Shown here: one piece after another, positions 1-59,023 of the stretch
How positions within the stretch are numbered: position 1 is the first letter of the stretch
Layout of the letters: every line of letters starts with the position of its first letter
Source of the DNA: a virus
Lineage: Duplodnaviria; Caudoviricetes
Virus record (IMG/VR): IMGVR_UViG_2744054908_000003
Location: 536-64,535 of that record
Reading direction: 5' to 3' (one strand)
DNA length: 64,000 nucleotides
The notes under the pieces: model-generated
The model's database searches: none
Seen by the model: the letters and a program-made list of their open reading frames with translations, nothing else
Told to the model about the DNA's origin: nothing
Made by a program: the position numbers and the translations under genes

Positions 1-821
1 TGAAGATTGTCTCGGATAAAGCAATCGCTGATATAACCCGCGAGGACGCGCAGAAATTCTACAAGGTTTGGCTACAAATGATAACGAAGCCAGCCAAAGG
101 CAAGCAGCCGATATCCGCCAGCATGGGTAATCGCATGATGGGTGGTATGCGCGTGCTATTTGCCGAATACTTCAAGCACATGGGCGATAGGGATCGGCCA
201 AACCCTTTCCGCGATCTTAGTTTTGCGGAGAAAGTTGAAAAGTCGCGGCCGCCTGTCCCAACGGATATCATCAAAGGGAAGTTCCTGACCTATGGCCCTC
301 TCGTCAGCTTAAACGAAGAGGCTCGCGGAATCGTCCTCGCGATGATTGAAACAGGATGCAGGCCAAGCGAGCTTTGTAATATTACGGCCGAGCACATATT
401 TCTTGCCGACAAGGTTCCGCATATCCTGATTGCGCCTCGAAAAGACGCTGCAGATCCGCGTGAGATTAAAACCGCTTCGTCTGTTCGCAAGCTGCCGTTG
501 GTCGGCATAGCGCATGAGGTTTTTAAGAAACATCGGAATGGCTTCCCTCGTTACAAAAACAAGGAAGACACGCTATCGGCGACGCTGAATAAGTATTTCA
601 AGGACAACGAGCTTTTTCCGAAGGGTGCCGGCTATACCGTCTATTCGCTTCGCCACTCATTCGAGGATCGCATGAAAGAGGCGGGCCTGGACGATGAACT
701 GCGCCGAATGTTGATGGGGCATACAGTTGACCGCCCACGATATGGCACGGGCGGTTCTCTGGAATGGCGAAAAGAACAGATGGAAAAATTCACGCTGCCG
801 TTCGACGCAGCCGTGATTTAA
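1..821 (+). CDS. Tyrosine recombinase/phage integrase, C-terminal part (frame open to window start)
   Basis: Box I ETGCRPSE, box II YSLRHSF...LMGH, catalytic Tyr in RPRYG. Confidence 0.9.
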   Translation, partial: KIVSDKAIADITREDAQKFYKVWLQMITKPAKGKQPISASMGNRMMGGMRVLFAEYFKHMGDRDRPNPFRDLSFAEKVEKSRPPVPTDIIKGKFLTYGPLVSLNEEARGIVLAMIETGCRPSELCNITAEHIFLADKVPHILIAPRKDAADPREIKTASSVRKLPLVGIAHEVFKKHRNGFPRYKNKEDTLSATLNKYFKDNELFPKGAGYTVYSLRHSFEDRMKEAGLDDELRRMLMGHTVDRPRYGTGGSLEWRKEQMEKFTLPFDAAVI

Positions 822-981
822 TACGATCGCGAATATTATCGTTCGCAGCCAGACTGCGCTGCATTCGTTCCACGCGCTCATAAAGTGGCAGGAGATTCTG
901 TTCTGTTTCCGGAAAGCAGGCAATCACACCGGCTATGGCATCCAACCATCGTTCGGTGTCAGCAAAGGTGTATGACGCCAT
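790..981 (-). CDS. Hypothetical protein, last gene of leftward operon; contains AANDN and ends TAA
   Basis: 63-aa ORF coupled to upstream stop; converges on integrase. Confidence 0.6.
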   Translation of the reverse strand: MASYTFADTERWLDAIAGVIACFPETEQNLLPLYERVERMQRSLAANDNIRDRIKSRLRRTAA

Positions 982-1208
982 TACTTGCTGCTTTCTGCCG
1001 GGCCGGCACGGCTTGCCTTATCTGCGGCTTCCTGCGCCTCTCGAACCGATTTTGAAACATCCTCGTCAGATGCGATGCCGCCCTCGTAGCTGCCTTGCGC
1101 ACGCTCTCCGATGTGAATGTGCGGAATCTGCTGGTAGGCGAGGAATATGGCTACGAGTGCCGCGATGACGATAAATACTCGCTTGTAGTCTCGCGCTGAC
1201 ATCCTCAC
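981..1208 (-). CDS. Small membrane-anchored hypothetical protein
   Basis: Hydrophobic N-terminal helix VFIVIAALVAIFLAY; coupled start/stop. Confidence 0.6.
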   Translation of the reverse strand: MRMSARDYKRVFIVIAALVAIFLAYQQIPHIHIGERAQGSYEGGIASDEDVSKSVREAQEAADKASRAGPAESSK

Positions 1209-1444
1209 TCCCTTTCCCGCAGTGCGGCGCGGCCTGCGTCATCTGGAACGTGACTGAGTGCCATTTCCAGTGCGTCAAGCGCGGCTTGCTTGTCGTAATA
1301 CTGGCTTCGGGTCAGGGGCGGCATTTCAACGATAATACCAGTGGGCACGTGTAACGCCCGGATCACCGTATCAAATCCGCCGACCCCCATACCGATGCGC
1401 TGATCAATGACGCGGATATTTACGTCTGCAAGGTCGAGTTTCAT
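1205..1444 (-). CDS. Peptide chain release factor (RF-1 domain)-like miniprotein lacking GGQ
   Basis: VIRALHVPTGIIVEM...RSQYYDKQAALDAL aligns by eye with RF1/RF2 VRITHLPTGIVV...RSQHKNK..A...L. Confidence 0.65.
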   Translation of the reverse strand: MKLDLADVNIRVIDQRIGMGVGGFDTVIRALHVPTGIIVEMPPLTRSQYYDKQAALDALEMALSHVPDDAGRAALRERE

Positions 1445-1875
1445 TCGCTACCGCCTCTCAGGGCTTGGCGACCGGCAGAATACCGCTCGAAGTGGAAAAC
1501 AACTGCCGTTTCATTGACGGTTAGAAGCCCGAACTTTTCAGCGAGACGAAAATTCACACTGGTTTTTCGCGCCCGTTCGATCTGCCGTTCTAGTTCCCAA
1601 CGAAGCCCTTCAATATTCATCGAAGACTTATAGAGATTGCATGGCGCACAGGCAGGCATAAGATTTTCAATGGTGTTGTTCTCCGGACGGAATACTTCGC
1701 CGGTCGGAACAAACCGTCCTGTTGCATAGCCAGTGCTCTCCCATTGAGATTTGCGAATGACGGGTTCGGCATGATCAACGTGCCATCCCTTTTCCGGAAG
1801 GTCGCAGCCACAATAAGCGCACTTGCCGCCGAATTTCTGCTTGATCGTCAACCTTTCAGCCTTCGTCAGCTTCAT
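1441..1875 (-). CDS. HNH endonuclease
   Basis: CAYCG, WHVDHAEP, NLMPACAPCN. Confidence 0.85.
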   Translation of the reverse strand: MKLTKAERLTIKQKFGGKCAYCGCDLPEKGWHVDHAEPVIRKSQWESTGYATGRFVPTGEVFRPENNTIENLMPACAPCNLYKSSMNIEGLRWELERQIERARKTSVNFRLAEKFGLLTVNETAVVFHFERYSAGRQALRGGSE

Positions 1876-2141
1876 TCGCTCTGCTCCCCAAGTGCGGATG
1901 CGGCGCAAACAACCATGCCAGCAGCAATGGCGTAGCGCATGCGCTCGCGTTGAAGTGTCTCAGGATCACCGTTGCCAGTCTGAACCAGTTTCAGCATGTG
2001 CTTGCGAGAATAAGCATCGGCTGCATTGATCGCAGCGATGACAGCTTGATCGGACACGTACTGTTTGGCGGTTGAGGCCAGACCCGCCAGAACAATTTCA
2101 TCACGGTCGAATGTCTCGCGGATTTGTTCCTTACTCGGCAT
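1872..2141 (-). CDS. Hypothetical phage protein (MPSKEQIRE...)
   Basis: AGGAGG SD before ATG 2141; overlaps neighbours in operon. Confidence 0.6.
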   Translation of the reverse strand: MPSKEQIRETFDRDEIVLAGLASTAKQYVSDQAVIAAINAADAYSRKHMLKLVQTGNGDPETLQRERMRYAIAAGMVVCAASALGEQSE

Positions 2142-57292: not shown

Positions 57293-57305
57293 CTTGATGT
57301 TAGAG

Positions 57306-57334
57306 AAAGGCGCCCCGAAGGGCGCCCTTTATTT
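57306..57334 (+). terminator. Intrinsic terminator, possibly bidirectional
   Basis: ggcgccc-cgaa-gggcgcc followed by cttttattt. Confidence 0.65.
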
Positions 57335-57645
57335 GCGTTTTCCTTTTGTTTCGTCCTGACGAAGGACCGAACCAGCCATAGCTTTGATTTGGCTGGGGGT
57401 GGCCTTGCCAGTTGAAAGGGCCTTAGCCGCGATAGACGATACTTTATTCCCGGTTTCGGCTTTTGCCATAATATTCACCATCCATTAGCAGTTTCGGAGC
57501 GCAACGTTCGACTGGAGTTCGTTTCGTTGACGATCGGAATCTGCCCGAATCATGTCTTTTCGTCAAGATATAGTTTTTTATTTGAGCGTTAACACTATAT
57601 TTAGTATCTGCCGCGTCATTATTGTAAGTTCCCGTTTTATTTTTA

Positions 57646-57680
57646 TCAGCCATTAACACCACATTTATCGAGACATTCCA
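57646..57680 (+). repeat. 35-bp direct repeat, copy 2
   Basis: Matches 26871-26905 with one mismatch. Confidence 0.9.
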
Positions 57681-57733
57681 TCCTTCCTTTTGCGCCGCTC
57701 ACCACGGCTACCAACCAAACACGAGGAGACTGT

Positions 57734-59023
57734 ATGTCCCATGACAGACAGGGCGCGGGTGCGCGCCTTTCACACGAAGAACTCCTGCGGCGTGCCGAGG
57801 CTTACCGCGAGCACGGTACGCTGGTTAAGGCTGCCGCTGCGCTTGGCATCAAGAAGTCGGCGTTCCACGAAAGCATAAAGCGGGCCGCTGAGATTGGGCT
57901 GTTGGGTCCGTCACCGACATTGCCCGGCTATGCGATCAAAAGCCTGACCGAGACGCCGAACGGCACTTACATGCGCCAGACGAAAGAGGCTGGCCCGGCT
58001 TACGAGCCAACGGCTGGCCTTGCCGTCAAAGGCAAGACGACGCTCGTTAATGCCGAAGGTCGGGTGATTACGCAGCACATTATGGAGCGGGCTGACGCGC
58101 AGCAACAACGGGCAGTGCTGGATGCCATGGTGTCGGCGCTATCCGAAAGCCTGCCTCGTGTCAGCATTATGCCCGCTCCGCGAGGCACCAATGCCGACCT
58201 TCTCAATTTCTTCTGCTTGACGGACGCTCATTTCGGGATGCTGGCATGGCGCGAAGAAACCGGCGCTGATTACGATATCGAGATTGCAGAGCAGCTTGTT
58301 ACGGACTGGTTCGCTGCCGCGATTGATCTTGCGCCTGACGCGCATACTGCCGTTTTGGCGCAACTCGGTGACCTTGCTCATTACGACAGCATGGAAACGG
58401 TTACGCCCGCCAGCAAGCACGTACTGGATTCAGATTCACGCCTGCAGAAGATCATTCGCGTCATCATCCGGACGGTTCGGCGCGTTATAGACATGTTGCT
58501 GCAAAAGCATCTGCACGTGCACATCATTATGGCGCAGGGCAATCACGATCCGGCCTCTTCGGCGTGGCTGCGGGAAATGCTGGCAGCAATGTATGAGAAC
58601 GAGCCCCGTATCACCGTCGATAACTCGCCCAGCCTCTATTACGCTTACGAGTGGGGTAGGACGGCGATATTCGCTCATCATGGCCACAAGCGAGGCGTCA
58701 GTAATGTCGATGCGACGCTGGCTGGCATGTTTCGAGAAATGTACGGCCGGAGCAAATATGCCTATGCGCACATCGGCCATTTGCATTCCGACGAAGGGCG
58801 CAAGTCTGGACTGATGTATGTCGAGCGCCACGAGACGCTGGCGGCTCCAGACGCATATGCTGCTGGCGGGGGCTGGCTGTCAGGCAGATCGGCCAAGGTG
58901 ATTACGTACTCAAAGCTGTACGGCGAAGTTTCGCGGCTGACCTTGCGGCCTGAAATGGTGCATGGCGCGGCGCGTATCCCGGTTGCGGCGAATGATAACA
59001 AGCCCAGCCGTGCGGCAGCCTGA
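57734..59023 (+). CDS. HTH + calcineurin-like metallophosphoesterase
   Basis: TDAHFG, GDLAH, GNHD, HHGH, GHLH; ends AANDNKPSRAAA. Confidence 0.88.
   Translation: MSHDRQGAGARLSHEELLRRAEAYREHGTLVKAAAALGIKKSAFHESIKRAAEIGLLGPSPTLPGYAIKSLTETPNGTYMRQTKEAGPAYEPTAGLAVKGKTTLVNAEGRVITQHIMERADAQQQRAVLDAMVSALSESLPRVSIMPAPRGTNADLLNFFCLTDAHFGMLAWREETGADYDIEIAEQLVTDWFAAAIDLAPDAHTAVLAQLGDLAHYDSMETVTPASKHVLDSDSRLQKIIRVIIRTVRRVIDMLLQKHLHVHIIMAQGNHDPASSAWLREMLAAMYENEPRITVDNSPSLYYAYEWGRTAIFAHHGHKRGVSNVDATLAGMFREMYGRSKYAYAHIGHLHSDEGRKSGLMYVERHETLAAPDAYAAGGGWLSGRSAKVITYSKLYGEVSRLTLRPEMVHGAARIPVAANDNKPSRAAA

Follow-up and report, generated by a model that had tools for sequence, protein, structure and literature searches.

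The alphaproteobacterial adaptor SspB reads the NDN head of the tag that transfer-messenger RNA (tmRNA) adds to proteins, and early proteins of temperate phages, such as CII, Xis and N of phage lambda, are under the control of host proteases. In Caulobacter, a hard-coded ssrA tag makes CtpA decay very fast and deletion of sspB slows this decay (PMC9393093); the first Ala of the tag is supplied by the charged tmRNA (PMC3985003). The tag of E. coli is modular: its head alone binds SspB without degradation, the head joined to a weakened end is degraded in an SspB-dependent manner, and a tandem head is degraded when SspB is present (PMC8512704; PMC8138137). Lambda O and MuA are listed as ClpXP or ClpX cases (Table 1 of PMC8138137), SspB delivers at least one genetically encoded protein ending in Ala-Ala, the cleaved RseA fragment (PMC8138137, PMC5587285), and Pseudomonas phage pf16 interferes with the SspB pathway through an SspB homologue (PMC5587285). 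Here we describe a 64,000-nucleotide stretch of phage DNA (the window below), which comprises bases 536-64535 of the single 64,535-base IMG/VR record IMGVR_UViG_2744054908_000003, classed as a complete provirus in the source collection. The head, and often the Ala-Ala end, of the host tmRNA tag recurs in about a dozen of its unrelated non-virion proteins, and these proteins are probably plugged into the SspB-ClpXP protease of the host.

The motif was first noticed in an analysis of the letters of the window and its open reading frames (the sequence-only reading), and the finding holds up and far exceeds what chance would produce. Translation of all six frames gives 21 NDN tripeptides, 17 of them inside the 101 genes predicted by a crude codon-usage caller made for this analysis, and 15 NDN, found in tails, linkers or N-terminal regions, directly follow an A, V, P, S, G or D. 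Within the 101 genes, NDN is found 17 times against 1.5 expected and ANDN 9 times against 0.17, 17 proteins end in Ala-Ala (AA) against 1.3 expected, and seven carry a full tail of the form [AV]NDN-x(4-13)-AA. None of 2000 within-protein shuffles reaches the observed number of NDN, ANDN, AA ends or full tails, and the same (0/2000) is true when the last 30 residues alone are shuffled. The tails are Ala-rich and of low complexity, as would be expected if the motif were an accident or a composition effect of Ala/Asn/Asp-rich disordered tails, but the shuffles of the last 30 residues refute this explanation, the permutations NND and DNN behave in the host as NDN does, and the motif is conserved across orthologues, so that we consider it hardly credible. 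The signal is in the peptide. The DNA pattern GCNAAYGAYAAY, which encodes ANDN, occurs 9 times against 0.33 expected (maximum 2 in 100 shuffles) and every match is in frame in a gene, while third positions differ from copy to copy (AAC/AAT, GAC/GAT, several GCN); because the codons vary synonymously, conservation is at the peptide level, as the sequence-only reading had proposed.

All seven full tag mimics lie where that reading had placed them. Here and below, protein names are based on a scan of 50 of the 101 predicted window proteins against PHROGs, 10 of which were also compared with Pfam. On the reverse strand, AANDNIRDRIKSRLRRTAA (790-849) terminates a 63-aa protein (gene 790-981; weak DpnI_C helix-turn-helix match, E 0.006) that is followed by no gene on the same strand, and AANDNVPAAERAATNRRAAA (5427-5489), which is kept in five prophage orthologues, terminates a 114-aa protein (gene 5427-5771; weak Trans_reg_C match, E 0.008). 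The other five are on the forward strand: AANDNDQREAA (12054-12089) in a Sak4-like annealing protein (Sak4/AAA_24, gene 11280-12089), AVNDNQPPRKTRGAA (13064-13111) in an endonuclease VII/HNH protein (gene 12335-13111), AANDNNAEAANAA (20254-20295) in a DNA methyltransferase (N6_N4 methylase, gene 19498-20295), AANDNLVAALKKSAA (28316-28363) in a phrog_36072 protein (gene 27458-28363) and AANDNKPSRAAA (58985-59023) in a phrog_704 DNA repair exonuclease (gene 57734-59023). All are genuine ends of phage open reading frames that read in frame to ordinary stop codons, not trans-translation products. The only tail modelled, that of Sak4, is predicted to be disordered or at least poorly fixed (residues 261-269 at a predicted local distance difference test score, pLDDT, below 50), and variation in length and sequence among orthologues suggests that the other tails are exposed too.

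The internal copies that had been listed for the helicase, the SSB-like protein, the primase linker, the genes at 27458 and 29995 and a micro-ORF at 7112 are all present, each on the forward strand. The tail of the SSB-like protein (gene 13112-13678) contains PANDN (13589-13603) and a degenerate second copy, AANSN, within 13589-13627, and ends in RPWG instead of AA. In the tail of the SF2 helicase (gene 16361-18085), AANDN (17975-17989) and ASNDN (17999-18013) are followed by an acidic DDDIPF end (18065-18082). AVNDN (22612-22626) occupies residues 296-300 of the primase (gene 21727-23892), in the linker between its Prim-Pol (16-183) and AAA_25 (347-536) domains, GANDN (27572-27586) is found at residues 39-43, near the N-terminus, of the phrog_36072 protein and is kept in both relatives introduced below, and ADNDN (30031-30045) at residues 13-17 of a 165-aa protein (gene 29995-30492). 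A further ADNDN (7133-7147) belongs to the micro-ORF MTMDTRPADNDNRPP (7112-7159), which is outside the 101-gene set. Two reverse-strand copies are new: APNDN (37471-37485) at residues 73-77 of a 327-aa protein without a family match (gene 36718-37701, inside the late region), and PSNDN (61987-62001) in PSNDNEEAQPSLF (61960-62001), the tail of a phrog_1599 protein (gene 61960-62694), where this variant of the head is followed by a clamp-binding-like end. Altogether, the 13 carriers in the gene set are Sak4, the endonuclease VII/HNH protein, the SSB-like protein, the helicase, the methylase, the primase, the repair exonuclease, two small putative DNA-binding proteins and four proteins without an assigned function; seven of the 13 end in AA and six otherwise. 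The protein names given in the sequence-only reading were thus roughly right (Sak4/AAA_24, endonuclease VII/HNH, SSB-like, SF2 helicase, N6_N4 methylase, Prim-Pol primase and phrog_704 exonuclease), with the two helix-turn-helix assignments being weak.

Several carriers have other short motifs near the head. An acidic [DE]-[DE]-[IV]-P-F end is found in 19 of the 20 helicase orthologues listed, and we take DDDIPF to resemble the C-terminal tip of bacterial SSB. The R-P-W-[GSK] tip of the SSB-like protein (13655-13678), which follows an Ala-rich stretch, is conserved in 18 orthologues and is a candidate docking motif. QPSLF at the end of the phrog_1599 protein (61960-61974), DLF directly before AANDN in the methylase (20242-20253) and QLSLF between AANDN and AA in the methylase of Rhizobium phage RHph_TM3_3_14B (L003 36002-36841) presumably resemble the clamp-binding motif. 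A beta-clamp homologue is encoded at 13739-14788, and no DNA polymerase was found among the 50 window proteins scanned.

A protein search identified Sinorhizobium phage NV1.1.1 and RHph_TM3_3_14B as the nearest named phages (~52% protein identity), and megablast of 22 kb against the phage collection found no near-identical phage record. The helicase is 94-97% identical to prophage genes of six Ochrobactrum/Brucella-type genomes, and patches of DNA are 88-91% identical between the window and prophages of such genomes; the helicase identity and the shared patches place the host in the Ochrobactrum/Brucella clade. Judged by its sequence, the window is that of a temperate phage of Ochrobactrum/Brucella-type bacteria. 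The sequence-only reading had suggested that the tag be read from the host ssrA gene and compared with the phage motif. Among three Ochrobactrum/Brucella genomes that hold close prophage relatives, the tmRNA tag is ANDNKAQGYALAA in two and ANDNNAKGYALAA in one, and it is ANDNYAEARLAA in two rhizobial genomes; with the tmRNA-carried Ala included, host tags start with AANDN and end with LAA. The phage motif is therefore identical to the start of the host tag, and the ends of the tails match as well. In the methyltransferase tail AANDNNAEAANAA, the first seven residues are those of the tag of host genome G001 with its tmRNA-borne Ala. SspB (PF04386) is present in all five host genomes and is homologous to the solved SspB proteins of Agrobacterium and Caulobacter (2NYS, 2QAS, 2QAZ), and the ClpX zinc domain was found in 3/3 host genomes. 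The sspB gene is located 0.15-2.9 kb from the tmRNA gene in four of the five (G001, G003, G004, G005). The phage itself encodes neither a tmRNA nor an SspB: ARAGORN and Rfam detect no tmRNA gene in the window, and a search of the phage for SspB gave no match up to E 1.

Compared to the native alphaproteobacterial tmRNA tag (Caulobacter tag: PMC9393093), the phage tails are alike in their first five residues, in the AA end of seven proteins and in length (11-20 residues versus 14), with 4, 5, 6, 8, 8, 12 and 13 residues between NDN and AA in the seven tails versus 7 in host tags. The phage copies differ in that they are gene-encoded, have no Leu before AA, commonly have Pro at position +2 after NDN and are in many cases internal, N-terminal, tandem or devoid of AA. 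Engineered DAS+4-type degrons (PMC8138137, PMC8512704) share with the tails an intact head, a spacer and a weakened ClpX end, but are man-made and work in E. coli, whereas the phage layout is natural, genome-wide and found in another host clade, and its ends are presumably weak. The likeness to the control of lambda O and MuA is that early proteins are short-lived through host AAA+ proteases, as would probably be the case here; lambda O and MuA, however, use individual unrelated signals, with neither a copy of the tag head nor an adaptor motif common to a dozen proteins. RseA is a host protein with a different SspB-binding sequence, and phage pf16 copies the adaptor, whereas the phage described here appears to copy the adaptor's ligand.

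The density of the motif sets the phage apart from its host. A sample of 1.2 Mb of one host genome (60 stretches, 1116 predicted genes, 334,233 residues) contains 13 NDN (18.6 expected), a single ANDN and no AANDN, and 50 of the 1116 genes (4.5%) have AA ends. Equal frequencies in phage and host had been named beforehand as evidence against a mimic; with 9 ANDN in 19,325 phage residues against one in the whole host sample, the motif is ~150 times denser in the phage. Matches to the DNA pattern in host genomes are concentrated in prophages: in the host genome G003, 7 of 25 lie in the related prophage and one in ssrA, and the remaining 17 equal the control count of 17. Avoidance of NDN by the host was considered and rejected: a 400-kb sample gave 2 NDN against 6.9 expected, but the ratio in the 1.2-Mb sample is 0.70 (Poisson p 0.12), NND (0.65) and DNN (0.86) behave alike, and NDN is the 860th lowest of 6317 tripeptides.

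The motif is also maintained in relatives of the phage. The deposited coding sequences of the two named relatives contain 22 and 27 NDN and 18 and 20 ANDN, and AA ends are found in 23/87 and 25/99 of them, which is the same picture as obtained with our gene caller. Of 19 prophage loci from different species, 18 have 5-15 NDN in ~21 kb compared to 0.2-0.8 expected. Orthologue tails keep the motif at 45-57% identity. In the helicase, N541 D542 N543 and N549 D550 N551 are invariant in an otherwise variable tail and two copies of the head are present in 18 of the 20 orthologues listed; PANDNR of the SSB-like protein is kept in 18 orthologues. Among 18 orthologues of Sak4, some have NDN and others do not, whereas the AA or VA end is retained; this turnover is what a short linear motif should show. 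The 63 copies in the three related phages give the consensus [AP]-A-N-D-N-x-P, with A at -1 in 45 and A or P at -2 in 53; the C-terminal 40 residues hold 31 copies and the N-terminal 40 residues 15, and the other 17 are internal. Because many copies are non-terminal or belong to proteins without an AA end, the common denominator is the head and not the whole degron.

The sequence-only reading had found no copy in terminase, head or tail proteins. This holds for the window, where terminase, portal, protease, major head protein, tape measure and tail fibre are free of the motif, and does not hold for the lineage, since the portal proteins of RHph_TM3_3_14B and of a second prophage in host genome G001 end in the full tag. 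G001 has two prophage-like elements with the motif besides the close prophage relative: the portal protein just mentioned ends in PPANDNSVEENAAA, and a major head protein has HANDNS near its N-terminus (L097 11008-12309; L095 11835-12974). The bias itself remains strong: the motif is found in 45/203 non-virion and 3/89 late-region proteins of the three phages pooled (p = 2e-5), and in 12/66 and 1/35, respectively, in the window alone (p = 0.03), where the one late carrier is the reverse-strand insert at 36718-37701.

The organization of the window is that of a temperate phage genome, with an integrase at the left end, a leftward early operon (790-6038), a CI-type repressor gene (6181-6903), a long rightward early, replication and recombination operon (~7100-30492), a late block that extends from the small terminase to lysis (30597-55498) and a second block of nucleic-acid enzymes (55961-60274). 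The leftward operon encodes a 79-aa protein (1205-1444, reverse strand) with a marginal match (E 1.3e-4) to phrog_20323, annotated as an RF-1 domain release factor, which may matter beside a mimic of the tag. Within the replication operon, on the opposite strand, positions 18244-18364 match the alphaproteobacterial ar14 small RNA (Rfam RF02344, 82.8 bits). In the tail operon, the gene at 41067-42671, the sole match of which is phrog_6841, has a third-position GC content of 0.43 compared to ~0.65 in its neighbours.

Four phages, Pseudomonas PSASB_03, Achromobacter Axy20, the lytic Brucella phage F1 and Aminobacter Erebus (of which the first 50 kb were counted), encode a homologous helicase and most of them the same replication module. 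They lack the motif, and AA ends are found in 0/49, 0/59, 1/43 and 3/71 of their genes, respectively. A series in which the tag heads of phages would covary with the host clade was looked for and not found in these four phages and lambda: ANDD is absent from all four, ANDE is absent from three and occurs once in Erebus, and phage lambda has neither NDN nor ANDE. The four phages without the motif tie the feature to the temperate lineage rather than to the host clade, the helicase family or the enzymes as such, and its absence from lytic phages of the same clade points to the temperate lifestyle, not infection per se.

Taken together, we propose, with a probability of roughly 0.6, that [AP]-A-N-D-N is a short linear motif that arose independently in unrelated proteins within a temperate lineage of Rhizobiales phages, that it copies the adaptor-binding head of the host tag and that SspB-ClpXP is its reader. 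The routing of early proteins through SspB and ClpXP as a turnover timer, suggested by the sequence-only reading, is thereby partly supported: the identity with the tag, the presence of SspB and ClpX in the hosts, the excess density and the concentration in non-virion proteins make a role of SspB and ClpX probable, whereas the timer would be a further step.

A number of observations weigh against this proposal. None of the seven tails has a hydrophobic residue before AA (N, E, A, S, G, A and T are found there), whereas host tags have Leu, and Pro is present at +2 after NDN in 26 of the 63 copies, a position where tags lack it. The same set has 32 copies that are N-terminal or internal, and only 13 of the 31 C-terminal ones are in AA-ending proteins. 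Tandem heads three residues apart are, we infer, unlikely to fill both sites of one SspB dimer. ANDN is absent from PSASB_03, Axy20, F1 and Erebus, which are lytic phages and include one of Brucella. The AA ends, for their part, are also found on the major head protein and the endolysin; they terminate 12/35 window genes that overlap the next gene and 5/66 others, so that a part of the signal may reflect operon packing, and in lambda 7/65 deposited coding sequences (portal B, Bet, Ea10, Ral, NinB, NinC and NinG) end in AA without any head.

The AA ends are indeed broader than the motif. The 17 genes that have them include ten without the head: 5772-6038 (reverse strand), 10043-10213, 10210-10470, 18681-19214 (Mu Gam-like), 26958-27461 (nuclease-like), 35012-36223 (major head), 37676-37876, 53699-54562 (endolysin), 59077-59601 and 59930-60274. 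In lambda, AA ends are ~10 times more frequent than expected from composition and are mostly found in overlapping early genes, and an AA at the C-terminus may be more widespread among temperate phages. In the two relatives, AA ends terminate 15/46 overlapping genes versus 9/56 others (NV1.1.1) and 16/45 versus 7/44 (RHph_TM3_3_14B). In the window, AA ends are 3-4 times commoner in overlapping genes, where the two Ala codons lie between the ribosome-binding site and the start codon of the next gene. One may thus ask if the whole feature is a nucleic-acid signal, i.e., a ribosome-binding leader, a device for translational coupling or a recombination linker at module borders. Of the 17 genes that end in AA, 12 overlap or adjoin the following gene and have codons of a GAGG-type ribosome-binding site just 5' of the two Ala codons, and the last 10 codons of the HNH gene (12335-13111) overlap the leader and ribosome-binding site of the next gene, the leader being a copy of ACACGAGGAG. 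This sequence occurs in 13 exact copies within 5104-59070, each located 2-11 nt 5' of a start codon and after a C/A-rich stretch, and looks like a strong shared translation leader; the micro-ORF MTMDTRPADNDNRPP is directly 3' of one copy. The motif is not a part of this leader, as 1/13 copies overlaps an NDN and the other 12 are without NDN codons, and the AA ends could be only partly explained as a by-product of ribosome-binding-site spacing: free-standing leader copies have A/C-rich spacers without GCNGCN, AA ends are found in just 10/152 overlapping genes of the host, and no gene begins within 50 nt after three of the seven full tags. In the case of the gene at 27458-28363, the next gene is 327 nt away, and its AA end is therefore not a consequence of gene overlap; the exonuclease gene at 57734-59023 is separated from the next gene by 53 nt. 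Since, in addition, third positions vary freely, all copies of the motif are in frame on the coding strand and the N-terminal and linker copies are far from gene ends, we regard a nucleic-acid signal as very improbable.

A different possibility is that the motif is a docking peptide for a reader other than SspB, of either phage or host origin, such as a hub of phage replication and recombination, and that its likeness to the tag is convergent or incidental. Such a reader would fit the facts that the carriers are mostly DNA-handling proteins, that half of the copies lie elsewhere than at the C-terminus, that neither Pro at +2 nor tandem copies are features of tags, and that the tails bear further mimic-like motifs (the acidic IPF end and the SLF end). 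Yet the head matches the host tag in five residues and is in many cases accompanied by the AA end, at a distance of 4-13 residues that comes near the 7 of the host. The helicase, Sak4, Cas4 exonuclease, primase and clamp families are shared with the motif-free lytic relatives, so none of them is an obvious reader, and the presence of the motif in unrelated prophage-like elements of the same host genome favours a host reader. This explanation is, in our opinion, rather unlikely, although it merits consideration.

It is also conceivable that SspB is the reader but that the purpose is to saturate it with decoys, blocking tmRNA-tagged or other clients, while turnover of phage proteins is incidental. 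Many copies are without a ClpX-type end (18 of 31 C-terminal copies and the 32 N-terminal or internal ones), E. coli SspB has a KD of ~0.1 uM for the head on its own, which does not lead to degradation (PMC8512704), and ClpXP-SspB is limiting and queues form (PMC12013620). What speaks against decoys is that the motif is placed on enzymes and not on one abundant dedicated protein, that seven proteins have the full layout of a degron, and that loss of SspB has no known phenotype in these hosts (no search was made for one). We find a decoy as the main purpose quite unlikely.

If SspB-ClpXP is the reader of the motif, host SspB would bind the head wherever it is exposed and tether the carrier to ClpX. 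The seven tails that combine head, spacer and AA would then be complete but weakened ssrA-type degrons, the weakness being suggested by the lack of Leu before AA, and ClpXP would degrade these proteins in an SspB-dependent way, with a decay that could be tuned. Nucleases, the methylase, the recombinase and regulators would be short-lived as long as they are neither abundantly expressed nor engaged. Where the AA end is missing (helicase, SSB-like protein, primase linker and N-terminal copies), the copies would make their carriers bind SspB as poor substrates and may serve as tethers or competitors. A temperate phage may in this way remove harmful DNA enzymes and regulators, or keep them silent, in lysogens and once lysogeny has been decided; they would accumulate only if expression outruns the protease.

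One extension of this mechanism is speculative and, in our estimate, unlikely: the whole non-virion proteome of the prophage would compete with tmRNA-tagged host proteins for the limiting adaptor and protease, and saturation would produce a coordinated switch that senses host translation stress. At low expression, leaky products would be destroyed and the lysogen would remain silent and harmless. Raised expression or the products of stalled ribosomes would fill SspB-ClpXP, and nucleases, the methylase, the recombinase, regulators and replication proteins would be stabilised together. Working copies could be protected by the engagement of partners through the clamp-like and SSB-like motifs beside the head.

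Both the control of phage proteins by host proteases and the mimicry of motifs by viruses are known; what appears to be new is the copying of the tag head onto a dozen proteins, and no published report of tmRNA-tag mimics in phage proteins was found in a directed search of the main texts of mostly open-access articles, in which the SspB homologue of phage pf16 came nearest. Beyond the sequence-only reading, the present analysis shows that half of the copies are N-terminal or internal, that AA ends are more widespread than the motif and that four lytic phages sharing the helicase are without both features. In the cases known so far, host proteases set the lifetime of a few temperate regulators, each by its own signal, while here one quality-control signal is found on a dozen unrelated proteins. 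Should SspB prove to be the reader, this would represent a clear case of a bacterial virus mimicking a host degron by a short linear motif, and it would provide naturally tuned SspB-dependent tags for alphaproteobacterial genetics. It would also link the load of trans-translation in the host to the behaviour of its prophages.

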